From: Neolecta irregularis DAH-3
Lineage: Eukaryota
Direction: 5' to 3'
Length of the DNA stretch: 20,000 nt
Assembly (NCBI GenBank): GCA_001929475.1
Contig: LXFE01000167.1
Location: forward strand, 55,023 to 75,022
Shown: positions 4,545 to 20,000 of the stretch, piece after piece
Layout of the letters: every line of letters starts with the position of its first letter
Position numbering within the stretch: the stretch's first letter is position 1
Translations under genes and position numbers: made by a program
The notes under the pieces: model-generated
What the model saw: only the letters and a program-made list of their open reading frames with translations
What the model was told of the DNA's origin: nothing
The model's database searches: none

Positions 4545-6926
4545 TCAACGCCTTAACGACTTTTTCTGAGGTTTCTTTTTAGAATCCGTTCGATCACATG
4601 TTGTCTTCTTGTAGCTTCGTTTCTCCACAGCAAGCATCTTCTTCCGTTTCTTGCTGCTCAATTTTTCTTTCGACTTCGTAGGACCATTTACTTTCGCTAA
4701 GGATTAGTCCACGAAAAGTAAGATGTGAGACCATCGGAGACTTTCTTATCGTTTGCTTTTAAAAACCATGTCCTTGCAGGGCGACTCCTTATCTCGGCTT
4801 CATGTTTGACGAAATTCTCACCCTTCTGAAGCTCCATTTCGGCCTGGCAAAGCTATATGTTGGTTAATTTCTTGTAGAGTTTAGAATACAGCCTTCTCTT
4901 CTTTCTCTTCCACTAAAGTTGCGTCCACATCTTCCGCCAACTTTGCTAAACGGACAGCCCATTTTTCCAGTCCCGTTGCATCCAGAGTTCGACTTCTGAC
5001 ATCGCCCTTTTGAGCGTCGGCGCTCTTGACTGCAAGTTTAACAATTTTACGGTCAGCTTCCCCAGCAAGGGTAACCGCGCAACCATTTCGTCCAGCTCGA
5101 GCAGTTCGACCCACCCTATGGAGATACATATCGTGTGACTGCGGTGCCTCGTAGTTAATGACAACATCAATCCCTTTGATATCGAGACCACGCGATGCAA
5201 GATCGGTGGCGAGCAAAAAGTCAACTCTCCCATCTCGGAACTGCTCTAATGCAGTAACTCGTTGTTCTTGGGATAGAGAACCGTGGAGATCGGCAGCCTT
5301 AAACCCCAAAAGTCCAAAAATAATGCGCATACGGTGAGCCATAACTTTGGATCTGAAAAAGACAAGAACTCTATTCTTGTAGATAGATGAAGCAAGCAAC
5401 AAAAGCATGGCCGAACGCAAGTGTTCTTTCTGCGGTCTTATTCGAATGAATTCCTGGGTTAAAGAGGAGGCAACACTATGCTTGGGATCGACGAGCAGAC
5501 GGACAGGCTTATTGAGAGAAAGTCGAATAAGGCTGTCAATCTGCCAGGATTAGTACGCGACTATGAACACCCGCTGGTACATCTTCTGTCATTGTCGCAG
5601 AGAATAACATTGTCTGCCGCGACTTGGGACAAAGTCGTATGATTTCGTCAAGTTCTTTGGCAAAACCATCCTCAAGCATCCTTTAGACTTGAGTAAATTC
5701 TTGAGAAGATTACATACCGATCGGCTTCGTCTATGACCATGATTTCGATATTTTCGATCGTAAAGCCGGTCGAGTTGCGAGCATGATCAATAAATCGTCC
5801 AGGAGTGGCAATAACAACGTCTGGCTTTTTCCGCAAGTCAAGCTCCTGAGTCTTTAGAGACAGCCCGCCCAAAATGTCAGTTTCTACGGGAAACTTGGTA
5901 ACAAACCCACACAAAGGCAGAAAGTCACATCGGTGTAAGTGGCTAGACGAATAGCTACACTGTGGCATTGCATAGCCAACTCTCGGGTTGGGCACATGAT
6001 CAATACCCTTGAAGTGGGTACTTTCTTGGGCCGGTATAAGAGCCGTTCAAGTATGGGGACAATGAAAGCTGCAGTTTTCCCAGAACCTGTGACTGCACCA
6101 CCCACAACATCTTTCCCAAGAAGTGCAATAGGTATAGTCTTCTGCTGAATTACCGTCGGTGTAGAGAAACCAACAGAGGATAGACCCTTCAAGATTGGTC
6201 TCGATAAATTCATATTGTTGAAGGATGTAACCGTGACATTGCTATCTTCGGATGGACCTGCAAAGTACTCCTGTCTTCGCGCGGTTTCTTCTGCAGTTTC
6301 AGGTTCTGATCCTGAAGCAATGTCATCAGGATGTTCGAAGGGAACTGCTATTGACCCATCAGAGTCCGAGTTACGATCTTCGTCGATATCTTCTTCCGAA
6401 ATTTCATCAGGTTCATCCCTAGTTTTGACGCCCATTCCAAACCCGTCTGCCGCTAAGCCATTAGATTAATTCAAATATTGTTCATGCCGATATCTTCATC
6501 ATCAAGAGCAAAGTTTCCAAATGCCTCGCTCTCATCTTCCCATTCATATGATATCTCATCACTAACTTCTGGACCGTGTTCTTCAACAGATTCTATGAGG
6601 AGATGTGTTCCTTGAGCTGATCGATGTCGCTTAATGATGTCCTCGATGTTGATATCTTTTTTTCTCTTGGTCTTCATTGCATCCTTTGCCTTATCAAATC
6701 CCCACTCCTGCATAGTCCCTAGATCCTGTCTTCCATATCCCGCAGCATCGAAGTCAAAATCTAGGTCGATATCTGCACATTTTCTCTTCTTGGTGGCATT
6801 TTCCTCAGGGAGCACTTCATGGCTCGAGTCCTCGCTTGCAGATAGCTCGGACTCTTCGTCGTCCTCTATAGTCAAAACAAAGTCATCAGCCTTTGCGCGC
6901 AGTTTTCTGGACGTATTTGTAGACAT
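4545..6926 (-). CDS. DRS1: DEAD-box RNA helicase Drs1/DDX27 (60S biogenesis), 7 exons; introns 6453-6487 (GC-AG), 5869-5906 (apparent GT-GG), 5681-5717, 5541-5580, 4853-4889, 4697-4731
   Basis: Acidic N-terminus with DFVLTI, then [77 protein letters not shown] and the C-terminal EI.SRP.RTWF. The exact 3' end is less certain. Confidence 0.92.
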
Positions 6927-7072: not shown

Positions 7073-10000
7073 ATGGAGAAATTCCAACTGCTCCCTTCGG
7101 ATATCGAGTCTAAGCTGCTCGAGCTAGAGTACGATTTTCAGCAAGGCGACATAACCGAGCAAGGCTACAAAAAAGTACACGTATCTGTACAAGCTTTCGT
7201 ACTCACATACAGCGGAAATCCGCTCTTCTTTTATCTGTAAAGGAGGACCCCGTAATTGCGGCTGGTGAGGGACAAACCAATTTTTCAAATGACAGCAACA
7301 GTACGAGCACGGTATTTCAACATCTAATTGCTTCTCATTGCTGACTGCCTCTAGGATTTCGCCCAAGCCTCTCCTAATAACCGCCCAGTATCCCATCTGT
7401 CTCTGGAGATGCCTGATTATCGTTTCAACCCTAGCACCTTTGATCTTCGTTTGTAAATCTTCCTATCAAAGGTCTTACGAGAAAGAATTTGATGACAATG
7501 ACTTGACCTATAATCGCATTCATAACACCTATACTGAACGCGCAAGAACTGAAGACTACGAAGAGATCGACGACGATAACAGTAATTCTCGTTATATAGC
7601 TAGCATACTGAAATTTTTATAGCAGTGGCCTACCAGCGTAAAATATTCGAAGGCTCTCCTCACAAAGGCATTCTTAATATCCTTGAACCACGAGACATCC
7701 CATTCTCAATCTTCGATCCTCATAATGAAAATATCCCCTTGTCGAAATTTGACAACCTAGCTGCGATATTGCGTTATAGGGGTCAAACAATACCCAAGAA
7801 ACCTGCTTTTCTAGTTCTAGATTCAAAAGGAAAAGAGGTTCACACAATGACATGGGAAAAGATTGCATTGCGTGCAGAAAAGGTTGGTCACGTTATTCGG
7901 GAAAAGAGCGGCCTATATCGAGGTGATCGTGTGGCCCTAGTTTATCGCGATAGTGAAGTCGTTGAGTTTGTCGTTGCCCTTCTTGGTTGCTTCATTGCGG
8001 GAGTAGTAGCGGTCCCAGTCAATAAACCAGAAGACTACGAGGAGCTGAACTTTATTCTTACCTCTACACAAGCACACTTGGCTCTGACAACTGACAACAA
8101 CTTGAAGGCTTTCCAACGGGGATTGAGTGCTGCCAAAATACCATGGCCCAGAGGAGTCGAGTGGTGGAAAACAAACGATTTTGGCAGTTTCCATCCTAAG
8201 AAGAAGGAAGAGCTTCCTGTATTTTATCGAAAAGTAGCTTTTCGCTAATACCAAGGCACTACAAGCTCCTGAACTTGCATACATTGAATTTTCAAGATCT
8301 CCTACGGGCGAACTACGGGGTGTTGTGATATCTCATCGGACTATCTTGCACGCTATGTCTAGCTTATTGGCTGTAATATTTTCTGTTCCAGGACAGAAAC
8401 AAGACTCGCCAGCAGAACATATGCGTGATAAACACGAAAACCCTGTTATTGGTACTGGGAGCGGAGAAGTACTAGTGACGTATCTCGATCCCCGCCAAAG
8501 TGTCGGAATTCTCTTTTCAGTACTTATGACTGTTTATGGTGGATACACGACAGTATGGACAAAACCTGGAGCTGTGGCAACTCCAGGTCTTTTTGCCAAT
8601 ATTGTTACGCGATATAAAGGTTTGAGCCATCAATTCGCATAGTCTCGTTTGACTCCAAGCATCCCTTGTTTTGGCTGATTATCCGGGGTTGAAAACAGTG
8701 GCATACAACTACCAGAACGATCCATTAACCACTCGGAATTTCTCTAAGAAGCATCCTGTCGACTTTTCTTCAGTTCGCCTGTGTTTCATCGACTGCCAAA
8801 ATGTAGATCCTGAGTTTCACGAAATCCTTGCCGATCGATATTTTAAGCCGCTCGGAAATCATCGTGCGTGGGACATTGTTGCGCCAATGCTCTGTCTTCC
8901 AGAGCATGGCGGCATGGTTATAACAGTCAGAGATTGGCTCGGGGGCCAAGATCGCATGATGCCGGACGGCCCAGCACTATTAGACGAAGGCGATGGTCTC
9001 ACTGACGTCCTTCTCAATAAAGAAGCTCTCAAGACGAACGAGGTGATTGTCATAGCAACTGGAGCGGAGGCGAAGACAAGAACAGGGGAACCTGGTACTG
9101 TCAGGATCGGCGCTTTTGGCAATCCCCTCGCGGACGCTACTCTCGCTGTTGTAGACCCTGAGATTGGCGTTATTTGTCCTCCACATATGATTGGTGAGAT
9201 ATGGGTACCAAATTTTATTTCAACGACCTTATCGATATAGGTAGATTCACCATCATTAAGCGCTGGATTTTGGGCATTACCAAAACATACATCTGATATA
9301 TTTCATGCGAAACCTCTGACAAGACGCCCGGATGGCGGCACAGAAATATATAGACAAGAGTTCCTACGAACCGGATTTCTGGGCTGTACTATTGAAGGAA
9401 AAGTCTTTGTATTGGGCATGTATGAGGATCGGCTACGCCAAAAGGTTGAATGGGTCGAAGATACCCAAGATATTATCGAATACCGTTATCATTACACCAG
9501 TCATTTGGTCACTACTATCATGAAAAATATAAAAGGCGTTTTTGATTGGTACCAGCACTTCCTTTCTAATATTTAACTCGATTATAGTGGCGCTTTCGAT
9601 ACTTTTGTGAATGAAGAGCATTTGCCAGTTATAATCATCGAAAGTCCTGTGGCTTCGACTACACCCATCACGCCATCATCTCCTCCAAAGCCACTCGATG
9701 TCACTCTCCTATCAAAATTAGCAGAACGAACAATCGAAATTTTACTTGACGAGCATCATGTCCGTGTTTATTGCGTTCTCCTTACTGCGCCCAATACTTT
9801 GCCGCGGGTCTTCAAAAATGGGCGAAAAGAAATTGGAAATATGCTCTCACGTAAAGAATTCGAAGCTGGAGCACTCCCTTGTGTATATATCAAATTCGCT
9901 GTCGAAAGGGCTGTGTTGAATTTGCCTATTGGTGAGGATCCAGTTGGTGGAGTTTGGAGCCCAGAGGCAACGTACCACCGACAGGAATCGCTCGCTTTCG

Positions 10001-12220
10001 AGGAACGCCAGTATAGTGGAGTTGATCAACGTGATATTGTTATTGACGAAAGAACATCACTGCAGTTGAACACATTTGAGAGTATTGTTGATCTGCTCCA
10101 ATGGAGAGTTTCTCGTCAAACGGAAGAACTTTCCTACTGCACCATTGACAGTCGAGGCAAAGAAGGCAAAGGTACGACTTGGAAGAAATTGGATATGAAA
10201 ATTGCGGCCGTTGCCCACTACCTCAAAACGAAGGCCAATATATTCTCTGGGGAGCATGCTGTGCTGATGTATACGCACTCAGAAGACTTCGTCTATGCAA
10301 TACATGCATGCTTTTGTTTGGGTATTACAGCAATTCCAATAGCACCCGTCGATCCTAACCGTCTTTCCGAGGACGTCCCTGCTCTGCTTAGTGTTATACG
10401 CGACTATAGCATCAAGGCTATATTGGTGAATGCGGATATTGAGCATTTAATCAAGGGAAAAGCAATTTCTCAACACCTGAAACAGTCTGTTGTTGCGGCT
10501 CGTCTCACCTTGCCTCCTATATATAATACATCTAAACCACCGAAACAGATTAAAGGCTGCAAAGAACTGGGAATGACGATCCGCCATGAATGGGTCCTGC
10601 CATCGTATCCAGCGTTGATTTGGGCTTATTGGACACCGGACCAACGAAGAATAGCAGTACAACTCGGGCATGATACAATCTTATCATTGTGTAAAGTACA
10701 AAAGGAAACCTGTCAGATGGTCAGTTCGCGACCTCTTCTTGGTTGTGTACGAAGTACGAGTGGCATTGGGTTTCTCCATACTTGCTTAATGGGTATTTAC
10801 GTTGGTACAGAGTTGCTGAGGAATTTGAGAAATGACATATACAGGAACCTCGACATACTTGGTTTCACCTGTGGATTATGCGGCAAACCCAGCCCTACTT
10901 TTGAATTGTATGGCTCGGTACAAAACCAAGGACACATACGCTACTCCCCAGATGCTGGACCATGCAATCCAGACAACTCCAGTCAAAGGAATCTCATTGC
11001 ATGAAATAAAAAACCTCATGATTTCATTTGAAGGAAGACCTCGAACCAATATGTGTAGGGGGTCTCTACAGTTTTGTGCTGACATATATAGTTCAACTTG
11101 TCAGAACGCACTTTTCGTCCGCATATCTAGACTACACGGCCATCAATACAACGTATAGTCATGTCCTAAATCCTATGATCGCAACTCGATCTTATATGTG
11201 CATCGAACCTATTGAATTATATCTGTCCGCACGAGCACTTCGTCGCGGGGTTATAGAAGTCACCAGTCCAGATGAAGATCGGTTTGGTTTATTAGTTCAC
11301 GACTCTGGCATGGTATGATTGACCAAGACTGATTAGTTTGATTCAATGCATAGGTTCCTGTGTCTACCCAGGTAGCTATTGTCAATCCTGGGACATGCTG
11401 TCTCTGTCGTGTAGGCGAGTTCGGTGAGATATGGGTTGCATCTGATGCTTGTGCAAAAAGCTTTTATGGTTCTCGAGATGCCTTTGATCTCGAGAGATTT
11501 CGAGGTAGATTAGTTGATGGAGATCCACGGATTATCTATGTTCGTACGGGTGATCTCGGTTTTTTGCATAACGTATCGAGACCCATTGGACCAGGGGGCG
11601 CTGTTGTCGATATGCAAACTTTATTTGTGTTAGGCAGTATCGGCGAAACGTTTGAGGTAAATGGCCTCAACCACTTCCCCGTCGATATTGAACATACCAT
11701 TGAACGATCTCATAAGAATATTGTAGGGGGTGGAAGGTTAGTACCTCCATCTTAACCCGCAATCTCACGTTCAAGTGCTGTTTTCCAGGCTGGGGGAAGC
11801 GTTGTTGTCCTAGTTGAAGTGGTGAAGGCCGAGCATTTGGCTTCTCTAGTTCCTGTAATTGTCAATGCGATACTCGACGAACACCAACTGATCGTCGATA
11901 CTGTTGCATTTGTTGCTTTGGGTGAATTTCCCAGGTCTCGACTTGGCGAAAAACAACGAGGCAAGATATTAGCGAATTGGGTGTCAAGGAGATTGTATGT
12001 CTCAATGTTTTTCCTAGCTGTCTACTCACAAGATAGATACCCGGTTGCAAGATATGCTGTTCGAGAGCTAGAGCGATCGGACAACAGTGGGCCTGAAAGT
12101 GCCACAGATATAACTCCAAACCAAGAGGATCAAAAATTATTTCCAGAGGGATACAAGGCCGTCCCGGATGGTTCAGAACCGTTCGTACAGGGTCTTGGTA
12201 TTGATGCGTTCATTCGTTAA
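7073..12220 (+). CDS. DIP2/Cmr2/Cps1-family protein: N-terminal DMAP1-binding domain plus two fatty acyl-AMP-ligase-like (AMP-binding) domains; about 14 exons; introns 7175-7212, 7312-7354, 7449-7485, 7582-7622, 8219-8255, 8620-8659, 9205-9240, 9549-9587, 10805-10844, 11055-11091, 11313-11353, 11737-11775, 11995-12036
   Basis: The N-terminus LLELEYDFQQGDITEQGYKKRK is DMAP1-binding-like. The A-domain motif variants are AYIEFSRSPTGELRGV, GEIWVDSPS, FLRTG.LG, then GEIWV and YVRTGDLGFL in the second domain, and PRSRLGEKQRGKI at the C-terminus. The exons in 7213-7622 are the least certain. Confidence 0.88.
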
Positions 12221-15499: not shown

Positions 15500-17689
15500 C
15501 TAGTCGCTGTCTGAAGATTCCGAGTCGCTTGGGTCCTCTTCGCTTTCGCCAGAGCTGGAATCATCGTCAGAGCTTTCCTCCGTCTTTCTAGATTTTCTGA
15601 CTGGTTGGCCTTTCATGTGATTTAATTGGCCGGCTATCGAATCTAGGGTGAGAAACATACTCCAAGGAACGAACCCTCATCAGGCTCAGAAATCTCATCA
15701 TCTGGGACGATCTCTTGCAGTTTGCTAGCTTCTTCGATATGAAGCTGCACGTTCAAGATATGATCAGTGCCGAGATAACTGTCACTTTTGATATAACCCT
15801 GGAAAGTATACACACCAGGACTTTGGGGAACTTGAAACTGAAGGCTCATAGTCTCGACTTGAGAACCAACACTGGGAGCAAGGGTTGGCGGTACAATTAG
15901 TCTATCCTGCTTGGCGTCGCTGATGAAAATCCAATAACGGGGAATATGTTGCTTGGGATAAAGTGGAGCATGTGCTTGCTCGTTCTTGTCTGGTTTTTTA
16001 CTCTTTGACAATATTTGATGTGTTTCCGCGTTTTCCGCGTCCTTGTCAACTAAATCCGATTCAGCAACAGGTATCTTTTGTCCGGGAACAAGAGTTCGTG
16101 CGCGAACGATAAACTGGACAATGGCGCCAGGTGCAACAATATTGTCACCGGGGACTTTATATAAGCAAAAGTCAGAATGGGCATACCTTTGAAGTAAGAG
16201 TTGACGACATCAAGTAGTGGGATTTGTTTTGCAACGCTCATTGCCTCATTGTAGGCCTTGTCATCTAAATCCTCGAGTAAGAATCTCCGTTCAGAGTCTT
16301 CAAGTGACATCAAATCATCCACAGTCTGAATATCCGGCCGCCGACCGTGTATTTTGTCAACAATGTCTCTGGTGATGCCCGTGATTTGCAAGAGCGGGGA
16401 GCCACCGATAGGAATTGCTTGAATGATACTCTGGGATAGATTCATGGCGGTCAAGATTGGTTGCAAGTATCCGAATGCAAGGGCAATAGTTAAAAGACCT
16501 CGCTGGAGTCGGAGCGCATTGTCCAATAGAACATGTTGATCTAACCATTAAAAGAATTGAAGACATGCATACCCTTTTCCAAATCCTTTGATTGCAGTTG
16601 CACTCTGTTCAGATGGGCAGAGAGTAAAGCGAGCGACTTTTTAGCCCATGCTTGATCTTTTCCTTTGACGTTAAGGGAACTGTCTGCCCGATGAGCCAAA
16701 GTCTTGACCTGCAGCTCTGAGAGACCGTTGTTCCTGTACGCGACTCTATATTCATCGCTCAAAGCAATCATGTCCGTTGCCGTGCCCGGGTCAATATGAT
16801 CGCTGAAATTGCGAAAAAAAGTTTCGGCAGATCTGATTCGAATACCGTCTTTTGTAAGTTGTTTACTGCCATTCCACCATCGTCCCTAGCGGTCAACATA
16901 TGGTTGAGGGAAAAACATACAACGTAATAAGGAAGCAAAACACCAATCAACAATGCATATAGTCCCAAAACATAAGCACTGTTTTGGCCTTCAATAATCC
17001 ATTTTGGAAGAGCAATGCCGACGCTAAAGTCTTGTTTGCCGTCAGGATGACCGAATTCTTCAAAATTCCTTCGAATGTCATCGTCAGTTAGACTGCAGGT
17101 TAACACAGTCTATTTGGCAGACGCACGCTTTATAAGCTTTAGTCAGCTCTACAAAATGGGCCACGAGGTCTTCCATGGTTTGATTTTCCAAGGGCTTGGC
17201 TTTGTCCGGGTGGCTATTTCAGTGGATGTGCGCAAGAGGACGGTACAATTTCAGACTTGCACGTTTGTAATGAGAGCGGATTTGTTGCGGGGTAGCGGAC
17301 TGTAGTGAAAACAAGGACTAGTAAAGAGATACCAGAGAAATGCCGAGAATTTTGTAGGGATCCCAAAAGATGCTTTCGATTTTGACGGTGGCGATGAGGT
17401 ATGCCATGTACCCAAACAAAGCCCAACCCGCGGTCAGGAGAACCATTCTAGGGGTGAGAAGCATTGCGGGTGGGCGATACTTTTTAGTGAGTTTGAATGA
17501 AGTGGCGGCGAGTTTCAGGGAGGAGTATTTCTTGGAGCAGGTGGAACAGGAGCATGTAGGGGGATTGAGATGGGAGCCTGCGGGGGGCACGAACAGCCTG
17601 TAGGTAGCAGGAAACAACAGGAGGGCCAAAAAGGTGAGGATAAAGTAGGGAAAGAACTGGGCGTTCTCGTCATAGTTGTACTGGGACAT
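15500..17689 (-). CDS. SEC63: Sec63 ER translocon J-domain protein, 9 exons (8 GT-AG introns of about 32-35 nt)
   Basis: N-terminus MSQYNYDENAQFFPYFILT plus TM segments, then WDPYKILGI, J-domain KF|HPDK, TKAYKALTD...FGHPDGKQ.FSVGIALP, the Sec63/Brl domain with KSDSYLGTD, and an acidic C-terminal tail. Stop TAG at 15502-15500. Confidence 0.95.
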
Positions 17690-17731
17690 TGTGGTGGAGG
17701 TTGAAATAAGAGAACCAATTTTAATTTTCTA

Positions 17732-19214
17732 TCAAAGAGCCTTGGTACGAGGAAAGCGTGCGCTGTAGATAGCATCCAACAGGGGACTAGCAGCAACCTG
17801 TCGCCCACCAAACCAACGACCGTTTAATCCCAAGATTGCATTTTCACCAGAGGAGATCTTTTCAAATTTTACATAAATTTCGCCGCCTTCGTCGACGTGG
17901 ATGTGGACTACTTTGCCGTATTTTTCTGTACATTCGGCGCGAACGTCGTCTTCGAGTTCGCGGAGGGAGTCGCTTGTTTCCCTGAATGTTAGCGGGCGCG
18001 ACCGGGGGCAGGTACTCGAGAGGATCAAACATGTTTTTGAGCAGGATGCAGCGGGAAGCGACGGTTGTTTCGATCTTGGGTTTGGTGTCCTTGTTTGCTC
18101 TGTGGACGGCCATGGGGCCTGCAGCCTGGCTGGTGGGGGCCGGTTCGCGGGCGAGTTTTTTCATGAGAGCTTCGCGGGAGATGTTTTGAAAGGAGACGCC
18201 TCCTGTTTCCGAGTCGTCGAGATTGGACTTGTCTTTTGAGCCGGTGTGGCGAGCCGAGTCTCTGCGGTCGTCGTAGTCGTCTCTGGCGCGGTCTGCGGGG
18301 GTGTCGTGGTCGCGGTCTTCGAATCTAGCAAGTTGAGCAGATGTTGATTCATTCGTAAACTTATCGCCTCCAAGACCCACTCTGATGGGGCGACCGGCGA
18401 GCTCGGTGCCGTTGAGTTTCTCGAGGGCTTCGCGGGCGGAGGAGGGGTCTTTAAACTGGACGTAGCCGTGGCCTCTGCTGCGGGTGGTGTCTGGTTCGGT
18501 CTGCAGGCAGACGCTCTCGAGCTCGCCAAAGGCCTCAAACACAGTCTTGAGGTCGTCTTCGGTGAGGGAGAAGTGGATGTTTCCGATGTAGAGCCGGTGG
18601 AAGGGGGCGTCGCCGGCGCTTTTCCCGAGCAGTTCGAGGCGGGCCTGTCTGTTCTTTTCTGCTTCAGTGAGCTGTGCGATGACTGGGATGCCCAGCAGAC
18701 GCTGGCCGGTCATGTTTATAGCCTTCTTGACCGAGTCTTCGTGTCTAAACTCGACATAGCCGACGCTGGCGGTCAGCGGCGGTGCATCCGCGCACACATA
18801 CCCTTTGGAGCGCCCCGAGACTCTGTCCTTTACGATCTGGGCGTCTCGCACGGGGCCGGCCTTGTCGAAGAAGGCGATCAGTTCCTTTGTGCGCAGCCGT
18901 GCGGCGAGCTGCTGCACAAAGACTGTTCTGCGGTCGCGCTCGTCTTCGGTGGGCGGCGGACTCGGGGGCCTTGACTGTCAGCGGCGCAGCAGGAGCGCGA
19001 ACCTGGACGGTTCTCTGCGGCGGTAGTCTCTGCGGTCGTCGTAGCGCCTGCGGGTGGGATCGTCGTGGCGGGGGCGATCTCTGCTGCGCGAGCGGCGCCG
19101 GTCTCTGCTGCGGGAACGGCGCCGGTCTCTGCTGCAGGCGCGGGCGGGAGGACCTCTGGGTGAGCCTTTTTTGAAAGGGGCTTCTACGAGGGCTTCCGTG
19201 TCGATGGCAGACAT
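17732..19214 (-). CDS. RBM39/CAPER-like (S. pombe Rsd1) splicing factor: RS domain, two RRMs and a C-terminal UHM; introns 18970-19002, 18766-18801, 17982-18015
   Basis: RS/RD-rich N-terminus, then EDERDRRTVFVQQLAARLRT, RNP1 SKG|VGYVEF, TEAEKNR, HRLYIGNIHFSLTE, SRCILLKNMFDP, EDDVRAEC..KYG and the UHM LNGRWFGGR. Confidence 0.9.
19074..19135 (-). repeat. About 2.5 copies of a 24-nt coding repeat (SRDRRRSR) in the RS domain
   Basis: Minus strand AGCAGAGACCGGCGCCGTTCCCGC / AGCAGAGACCGGCGCCGCTCGCGC / AGCAGAGATCGC. Confidence 0.7.
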
Positions 19215-19299
19215 CAGGGAGGCGGAGGGCAGCGGCGGCTGGGGGGGGTATGGGCAAAGGCCCTTAATTATTATAGAGCTATGTACCTAATTACACAGG

Positions 19300-20000
19300 C
19301 TAGCCCGACTGGGACGCGGCGACGTAGGCGTTGAGCGCATCGCGGGCGGCGCCGTCGCAGATGCTTGCGCGGGCGAGGGCGGCGGCGGTCTTCCAGCAGT
19401 CGGTGCGCCCGGCGGCGACCAGCAGCGCCGCCGCGTTGATGAGCACAAAGTCGAGCAGCGCGCCCTGCTCGGCGCCGTCGAGCAGCGCCGCGAGCGTCTG
19501 CGCGTTGTGCGCGGGCGAGCCGCCGGCGACCGCAGCCAGCGGGTGCGCGGCGACGCCAAACGCCTGCGGCGACAGCGTGAAGCAGCTCAGCGTGTTGTTG
19601 CGCACCCGGCAGACGTGGGTGGGGCCCGCGGGGGAGATCTAGGGTTAGTTAGGGTTAGGGTTAGGGTTAGGGCACGACCTCATCAAGGCCGTCCGCGCCG
19701 CAGACCACCAGGCCGTCGCGGCCCAGGCGCAGCAGCGCGTCTGCAAACGGGCGCAGCAGGCGCTGCGAGTGCACGCCGAGCACGCAGGCGCGGATGTTTG
19801 CCGGGTTGAGCAGCGGGCCGAGGGCGTTGAAGATCGTGGGGAACGGCAGCTGTCTGCGCAGCGCCGCGATGTCTGCCAGCGCCGGGTAGCAGGCCGGGGC
19901 ATACAGAAACGCAAACGGCGCGGCCAGCATGGCCTCGAGCGCAGCGGGCGACGGCGACAGCGAGCCGCCCAGCGCCGCCAGGATGTCTGCCGAGCCGCTC
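19300..20000 (-). CDS. TRP4: Anthranilate phosphoribosyltransferase (3' part; the gene continues past the window); intron 19639-19678
   Basis: SGSADILAALG, FAFLYAP..YPAL..IAALRRQLPFPTIFNALGPLLNP, GLDE|ISP and DFVLINAAALL are TrpD/Trp4 signatures. Removing 19639-19678 joins ORFs 19667-19930 and 19300-19605 in frame. Confidence 0.93.
19639..19672 (+). repeat. Interstitial telomeric repeat tract CTAGGG-TTAG-(TTAGGG)4 forming the body of the TRP4 intron
   Basis: The + strand reads ctaggg ttag ttaggg ttaggg ttaggg ttaggg. TTAGGG is the ancestral fungal telomere repeat. Confidence 0.92.

Follow-up and report, generated by a model that had tools for sequence, protein, structure and literature searches.

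A 40-nucleotide intron of telomere-like repeats in the trpD gene of Neolecta irregularis, and its possible entry through break repair

The origin of new spliceosomal introns is a long-standing question for which there are few clean examples; intron gain through error-prone break repair with inserted DNA is reportedly represented by cases in Daphnia. Here we describe an intron in the trpD gene (TRP4, anthranilate phosphoribosyltransferase) of the fungus Neolecta irregularis DAH-3, 40 nucleotides (nt) long and telomere-like over 34 of them, which lies close to the right end of a 20,000-nt stretch of contig LXFE01000167.1 (positions 55,023 to 75,022 of the forward strand; hereafter the window, whose own coordinates are used throughout). 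Several described systems bear on it (published work is cited by PubMed Central identifier, in each case from excerpts of the paper). Short telomeric arrays inside mammalian chromosomes are described as arriving abruptly where breaks have been repaired, accompanied by random filler and by in-register bases (PMC7215372). A TTAGGG telomere unit is reported for the fungi Taphrina, Pneumocystis and Saitoella, and Tay1 is a protein that binds telomeres of the TTAGGG type, with Teb1 as its homologue in S. pombe (PMC7857110, PMC12449055 for Tay1 and Teb1; PMC7857110 for the telomere unit). The N. irregularis genome itself is 14.5 Mb in length with a GC content of 44% (PMC5309816), and approximately 26% of its introns are inferred to have been acquired independently and to be lineage-specific (PMC7940399).

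The interruption in trpD occupies 19639-19678 and is read on the - strand (19678..19639) as GTCGTG-(CCCTAA)4-CTAA-CCCTAG, flanked by ...GGC CTT GAT GAG on one side and ATC TCC CCC... on the other. A first-pass annotation, made from the letters of this DNA alone, had given the same description, which is correct to the base and agrees with the tandem repeat reported by Tandem Repeats Finder (TRF; 19640-19672, period 6, 5.8 copies, 13% indels). The segment has the form of a GT..AG spliceosomal intron of phase 0, placed between GAG (E) and ATC (I) in the GLDE|ISP motif of the trpD product. Left unspliced, the reading frame runs through GAG GTC GTG CCC into a TAA stop and the length of 40 nt is also not divisible by 3, in agreement with the earlier claim that the tract must be removed. 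The 5' splice site, GTCGTG (19673..19678, - strand), is the sole non-telomeric part of the intron; a second GT at its position +4 would allow an alternative 37-nt intron, in-frame. It is followed by four perfect CCCTAA units (19649..19672), which present the telomeric C-strand in pre-mRNA sense and bear the upstream CTAAC motifs. The next unit is truncated to CTAA (19645-19648) and makes ACTAAC (19644..19649), the most likely branch-point motif, with its predicted branch A at 19645, 6 nt before the 3' end. The last telomere-like unit, CCCTAG (19639..19644), ends in the TAG acceptor, whose assignment is drawn from the sequence together with the X2 contig described below. There are five CTAAC motifs in all, one every 6 nt, of which ACTAAC is the last. 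The proposal that telomere sequence supplies both branch point and acceptor fits this layout, given that the branch-like CTAAC motifs (with the branch A as predicted) and the acceptor fall inside telomere-like units.

Two further claims about how these signals arose do not hold as worded. The 2-nt deletion was said to create the 3'-proximal branch motif; a pure CCCTAA-CCCTAG would place the A of a CTAAC just as close to the AG, at 6 nt, and all that the deletion changes is the base before CTAAC (C to A) and the length (42 to 40). Similarly, a change of CCCTAA to CCCTAG was said to create the acceptor. Because the flanking exon ends in AG, a placement of the insert 2 nt further left is equally good, and the G of CCCTAG may then be original to the exon rather than a mutation.

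The locus has properties of two known kinds of element. It has the GT 5' end and AG 3' end of a U2-type intron (GTCGTG...CCCTAG, - strand), and it is an interstitial telomeric sequence in which (CCCTAA)4 and two imperfect units are arranged head-to-tail in a non-terminal position with trpD exons on either side. A search for the (CCCTAA)3 18-mer with at most 1 mismatch finds this tract as the sole site in the window (2 overlapping matches; expectation 0.00; 0 of 200 shuffles), and no further telomeric 9-mers are present elsewhere in the 20 kb. The tract had been likened in orientation to a right-arm telomere; this is correct as to the strand but not as to a chromosome end, since exon 1 continues rightward beyond it.

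Two runs from one study were used to examine splicing, X1 (DNA, which may be the source of the window) and X2 (labelled 'DNA?'), and their contigs were compared with the window over 17000-20000. Six segments of 33-36 nt, bounded by CT..AC on the + strand (equivalent to GT..AG on the - strand), are missing from the X2 contigs, whereas the X1 contigs have no joints and skip no segment, and X2 therefore behaves as a transcript assembly. Regions of the window outside X2 coverage do not enter the argument. In the X2 contig that covers trpD (record 6), positions 19239-19638 correspond to letters 1-400 and positions 19682-20000 to letters 404-722; 3 letters thus stand in place of 43 masked positions (19639-19681), and 40 nt are absent. 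The sole canonical solution is that 19639-19678 is removed and GAG retained. The resulting transcript-like contig joins the trpD exons precisely in frame, and removal restores both an open frame and the GLDE-IS contiguity seen in homologues. The segment is thus absent from the transcript-like contig and present in DNA, as judged from contigs rather than raw reads and within one study, and the X1 contigs run on past the exon edges without exon-exon joining, so that the DNA must hold something between the exons. The identification of 19639-19678 as a spliced intron is upheld by a record lacking exactly 40 of the 43 masked bases, and we conclude with high confidence that these 40 bases are a real, spliced intron.

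Some features of the two assemblies should be recorded alongside. The X1 contigs break within a perfect repeat of 24 nt, which a word of 31 bases should have spanned, and depth falls from 335 to 110-151 rightward; variants in repeat number, words that also occur in telomeres, or GC bias could underlie this break and drop. X2 differs from the window by two single bases in 3 kb, at 18900 (T>G) and 19510 (C>T), and so derives from another haplotype or individual than the assembly, yet uses the same splice sites.

The two exons flanking the intron both belong to trpD. The upstream exon (19679..20000, - strand) ends in ...VVCGADGLDE and is cut by the window end, and the last exon (19300..19638, - strand; ISPAGPTHVCRV...SQSG) ends in a TAG stop at 19300-19302. 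Against Pfam family PF00591 (family cut-off 27 bits) the upstream exon (19679-19999) matches profile positions 47-154 with an E-value of 7.4e-23 and the downstream exon (19303-19638) matches positions 156-252 with an E-value of 7e-17; the alignment passes from 154 to 156 across the 40-nt tract and is seamless once the tract is removed. Among solved anthranilate phosphoribosyltransferases, 25 distinct sequences match the upstream exon as well (best 1v8g, 4.3e-20), and GLDE runs straight into I/L-S in all 14 named fungal homologues in which the motif is shown. In the protein collection, no entry of at least 189 or at least 197 aa was returned at 100% for either exon, whereas the neighboring gene has an exon with 100% identity to 'RNA-binding protein rsd1 [Neolecta irregularis DAH-3]' (P0086). 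It seems that trpD has no full-length public gene model, perhaps owing to its odd intron.

The apparent lack of a gene model and the break of the re-assembled X1 contigs inside the tract would fit a misjoining of telomeric reads into trpD during assembly, or a pseudogene broken by a telomeric insertion. Either is exceedingly improbable, given that the X1 contigs carry 32 and 39 letters past the exon edges with no joint, and that the exon junction in X2 is exactly in frame. Each exon is intact, with an open reading frame and a match to PF00591, and the coding sequence closes with a normal stop; the orientation of the tract is wrong for a telomere at the left end of a right-hand contig. The public rsd1 model also mishandles a tiny intron, which can explain the missing model for trpD.

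The trpD intron conforms to the introns of its neighborhood, and its layout matches that of six other validated introns nearby (17093-19002), three in rsd1 and three in the downstream DnaJ/Sec63-like gene. These are 33-36 nt in length, with 5' sites GTGCGT, GTACCG, GTATCT, GTACCT, GTATGT and GTTCGC (G at +5 in three of the six). Three contain CTAAC or CTGAC, with the branch A at 7, 7 and 8 nt from the end as compared with 6 nt in trpD, and the other three have the near variants TTAAC, CTGAA and TTCAC. A scan of the rest of the window gives intron lengths of approximately 33-44 nt; its 27 candidate rows include alternative boundaries at the same sites and serve as a rough guide to length and branch spacing only. 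The predicted folding energy of the trpD intron RNA is 0.0 kcal/mol, as compared with -0.4 to -9.1 in the other six.

Intron recognition in N. irregularis would, from this layout, depend on short length (~33-44 nt), on the AG, and on a CTRAC motif lying 6-8 nt before it, with a weak 5' site. In the trpD transcript the CCCUAA units would offer a CUAAC every 6 nt, five in all, the last an ACUAAC whose A is 6 nt from the end; the last telomere-like unit would end in UAG, and the C-rich RNA is predicted to lack secondary structure. Telomere repeats and GTCGTG could in this way form a complete intron. Judged by its sequence, the telomeric C-strand together with these six bases would thus meet every local intron requirement. 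We read the 40 bases as a genuine U2-type intron of minimal size in trpD, one that illustrates how little sequence a Neolecta intron needs.

The base composition of the tract departs from that of its surroundings. Window GC is ~43% over the first 17 kb and climbs to 70-72% at the right end over the last 3 kb. The GC at third codon positions (GC3) of the two trpD exons is 0.888 and 0.955, indicative of strong GC pressure, and the three nearest validated introns have 67-69% GC; the trpD intron has 53%, and its four CCCTAA units are without a single change inside this strongly GC-driven zone. Together these observations argue that the tract is young, apparently much younger than the surrounding composition, unless slippage or selection keeps the units uniform. 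The rise is not peculiar to trpD, since rsd1 (GC3 0.62-0.82) and the introns of this zone (67-69% GC) are GC-rich as well. The interval 17000-20000 forms a regional zone of isochore-like high GC within a genome of 44% GC, and is compatible with GC-biased gene conversion in a break-rich region.

The GC climb and the bacterial matches of the downstream exon prompted the idea that trpD was transferred from bacteria, in which case all of its introns would be new. A search with this exon returns bacterial-type proteins only (~338 aa), none above 50% identity, those with names being Rhodobacterales. The transfer was rejected on the upstream-exon matches, the tree and the regional nature of the GC rise. 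The best named matches of the upstream exon are fungi (Sporobolomyces 51%, Saitoella 50%, also Microbotryum and Tulasnella), and the best trpD representatives include Ceraceosorus and Tilletiaria. In a 54-row tree, built by a quick method and with the query composition flagged as odd, trpD falls inside a 23-row set with all 13 named fungi (Shimodaira-Hasegawa-like approximate likelihood ratio test [SH-aLRT] 99), apart from the Rhodobacterales. The bacterial matches are best explained by the Ala/Arg-rich composition forced by a GC3 of 0.89-0.96, and on these comparisons the gene is a fungal trpD and not a bacterial transfer.

For the origin of the intron, gain or rebuilding through the capture of telomeric DNA is a plausible and preferred reading. 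The tract would be an interstitial telomeric sequence of recent date, brought in by a single step as a break was repaired with telomeric DNA, and taken as a whole, the statement that this is a real trpD intron whose young telomeric tract came in by such a step is in our judgment probable, if with moderate confidence only. The + strand layout is ...GAGATCT, AGGG TTAG (TTAGGG)4, CACGAC, CT, CATC.... The source of the inserted DNA could be extension of the + strand 3' end ...GATCT by telomerase, or a captured fragment of telomeric DNA or cDNA, in either case with CACGAC as filler on the far side of the tract. If by extension, telomerase would have lengthened a 3' end ...ATCT, making an early mis-step (TTAG-TTAGGG), after which the six filler bases completed the join. 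The excerpts of PMC3592445 contain no sequence for the template flank of telomerase RNA; if GTCGTG were copied from telomerase RNA just 5' of the template, telomerase itself would be implicated, through read-through reverse transcription of the kind behind the TERC-linked arrays of mouse and horse.

The break could have fallen inside an older intron whose GT... and ...AG ends survived, or in the exon itself, in which case the intron is new. A patch inside an older intron needs the fewest coincidences and is judged somewhat more likely than an exon patch. The latter also has points in its favor. An exon break in an essential biosynthetic gene would have been healed with telomeric DNA and a 6-nt filler inserted into the uninterrupted trpD exon, and the patch, spliceable at once or after one or two changes, would have become a new intron; it would owe this to the telomeric C-strand, in which CTAAC is already present and a TAG acceptor only one step away. 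With 34 of 40 nt telomeric, nothing resembling an older intron interior is left, and coding residues are neither lost nor added. The weak 5' sites of the local introns imply that little beyond GT is needed, and the lineage-specific fraction of Neolecta introns noted above (PMC7940399) is in keeping with gain. A random insertion into this gene would nevertheless have to place GT and AG exactly at its two ends, and far fewer coincidences are needed for a break inside an existing intron. We hold gain in the exon to be a tentative proposition, doubtful though far from negligible; it is a sub-case of the one-step insertion, and the probability assigned to it overlaps that of the insertion as a whole.

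Intron positions in other fungi bear on this choice. Open reading frames (ORFs) called on genomic contigs of eukaryotes run into introns, whereas annotated spliced proteins are uninformative on intron position. Six genomic ORF fragments (P0379, P0347, P0334, P0342, P0226 and P0337) run uninterrupted across GLDE-ISP and begin to diverge after ISPxGxT[HWED], 8 codons downstream of GLDE|ISP; P0337, compared with P0475, has a 19-residue in-frame insert (57 nt), starting with VS and ending with Q, exactly after this motif. The nearest named relatives of all six are basidiomycetes, and P0379 is in one 90% cluster with a Kockovaella protein. By reading through GLDE|ISP and breaking 8 codons on, the fragments indicate that basidiomycetes have an intron at the downstream site and none at the Neolecta site; Neolecta trpD is continuous at the basidiomycete-like position. 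No break at the DE of GLDE was found among 364 homologues. One candidate, P0370, ends 1 residue after DE and was considered as intron-bearing, but it is bacterial-like and was set aside as probably ending at a contig end. As far as these fragments tell, an intron at GLDE|ISP is not universal in fungi, and is not ancestral in at least one large fungal group. The six fragments thus count in favor of gain, tempered by a comparison confined to basidiomycete-like gene structures, which leaves room for an older intron in ascomycetes, Taphrinomycotina included. Saitoella and Tortispora are represented among the cluster members by annotated proteins only, which are mute on intron positions. A close relative was found neither in metagenomes, where all 41 loci had at most 48% identity, nor among 1.84 billion representatives (5050 matches at E of at most 0.001, best identity 59%).

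A different route would dispense with telomerase and telomeric DNA altogether. An old intron that by chance ended in CTAAC-CC-TAG, or ~1.5 units, could have had its hexamer multiplied by slippage; a branch motif, pyrimidines and TAG yield CTAACCCTAG without any telomere, and local introns end in GCTAACATTCAG and GCTGACCGCCAG. The truncated CTAA unit resembles a slippage error, and the 13% indels of the TRF call point the same way. Such stepwise growth is nonetheless unlikely. Adding ~24 nt to an intron of 33-36 nt predicts ~58 nt with the old interior kept, as compared with the 40 nt seen, in which only GTCGTG is non-telomeric, so extra deletions would be required. Mammalian interstitial arrays, moreover, are described as having arisen by sudden insertion rather than slippage (PMC7215372), and in the small sample of other validated introns and scan candidates in the window none ends in CTAACCC.

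The array might also be kept for what it binds or forms, a reading compatible with any of these origins. The + strand, which is the trpD template strand, contains GGG(TTAGGG)3 at 19652..19672, a G-quadruplex-type motif (G3N3) found by a regular-expression scan of the sequence, and a fifth GGG run lies at 19642-19644. The TTAGGG array is sequence-compatible with G-quadruplex formation and with the binding of Myb proteins, and either a template-strand G-quadruplex or a Myb-type factor (Teb1/Tay1/Tbf1-like) could tune trpD transcription or splicing. In S. pombe, the Tay1 homologue Teb1 is reported to act as a transcription factor on several essential genes, those for histones among them (PMC7857110, PMC12449055), and here four perfect units persist, with a canonical G3N3 motif, in a strongly GC-driven zone. 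The array is, against this, a single locus in mid-gene and not in a promoter, and its youth would explain its perfection equally well. We regard maintenance for such a function as quite improbable.

Several points count against the one-step insertion that we prefer, or against the data on which it is built. Positions 19639-19681 are repeat-masked and the corresponding joint row was dropped, and the removal of 40 nt is therefore read from contig coordinates and not from a printed joint. X2 is labelled 'DNA?' and its transcript nature is inferred from its joints, and X1 and X2 come from one study. Both X1 contigs end within the tract, having run 32 and 39 letters past the unmasked flanks, and no re-assembled DNA contig spans it; the repeat number of four rests on the original assembly. 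Only one base (T) is in register with the repeat at the presumed break, and the AG..AG flank is demanded by splicing anyway; neither is a repair signature. TTAGGG is known for Taphrina, Pneumocystis and Saitoella, but Schizosaccharomyces differs, and the excerpts of PMC7857110 do not name Neolecta. Slippage or selection can also keep repeats uniform, which weakens the argument from age. The intron-free comparison, finally, is with basidiomycetes, which are very distant.

The remainder of the window contains several recognizable genes. The public rsd1 protein (P0086, 471 aa) retains a 36-nt in-frame intron (18766-18801, - strand) as 12 residues (YVCADAPPLTAS) in its first RNA recognition motif (RRM); the segment is removed in the transcript-like contig to give KGVGYVEF, and tiny in-frame introns seem to escape annotation. 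A 24-nt tandem repeat at 19078-19135 (2.4 copies, 94% matches) encodes a repeated SRDRRRSR Arg/Ser stretch at the rsd1 N-terminus. To the left, genes for DEAD-box helicases are found at 239-1981 and 4881-6465 and SDA1 at 2123-2962. At 7604-11004 (+ strand) there are serial ORF pieces with AMP-binding and Mug62 domains, which probably form one multi-exon Mug62-like gene, or two. An Rfam scan of the window gave 0 matches.

If the break did lie in the exon, fungi whose introns are tiny and branch-point-defined could obtain new ones directly from telomerase or telomeric DNA. In trpD the interior of a working intron points in its entirety to one donor, the telomere repeat, which by its sequence supplies the splicing signals; this offers a concrete route from break repair with telomeric DNA to a spliceable insert, one that would explain the tolerance of a normally lethal exon insertion. 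An uninterrupted exon in relatives would sharply raise the interest of the case. If instead the intron is old, the case shrinks to an interstitial telomeric array within an intron, an event of a kind known in mammals, and the remaining noteworthy point would be that the array has turned into the functional core of the intron.

Among known systems, the interstitial telomeric sequences at repaired breaks of primates, rodents and horse (PMC7215372) are similar in being short internal head-to-tail TTAGGG arrays. They share with the Neolecta tract a distally perfect array with one irregular junction, a few filler bases on one side, and at least one in-register base. They differ in that the Neolecta array lies within the coding region of a gene, where the excerpted text reports none for human, in that its host is a fungus, and in that a sudden insertion is not backed here by an empty orthologous locus. 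The array is tolerated in the coding region because, together with six further nt, it makes up the whole of an intron. In the model of intron gain by error-prone break repair (PMC3020277), a foreign fragment enters at a break, and the Neolecta intron, if gained, would resemble it in this and in its short direct repeat AG..AG; it would differ in that the donor is telomeric DNA bringing its own branch motif, and in that the 2-nt repeat is required for splicing anyway. Introner-type, transposon-derived introns offer a parallel in the insertion of ready-made spliceable DNA, whereas the trpD intron lacks terminal repeats and an element body and is the only copy within the 20-kb window. As compared with the ordinary tiny introns of Neolecta, it shares the GT..AG ends, weak 5' site, CTRAC-type motif 5-8 nt from the AG, very short length and removal in X2, and differs in length (40 nt vs 33-36 nt), GC content (53% vs 67-69% in its neighbors), low complexity, five redundant branch motifs and no predicted structure. 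We found no published spliceosomal intron with a body of telomeric array in a search that extended to neither subscription journals nor supplements; the known kinds to which this locus belongs are the interstitial telomeric sequence and the tiny fungal intron. The question raised in PMC7215372, whether intronic telomeric repeats affect splicing, receives one case here, in which the repeats are compatible with splicing and probably direct it.

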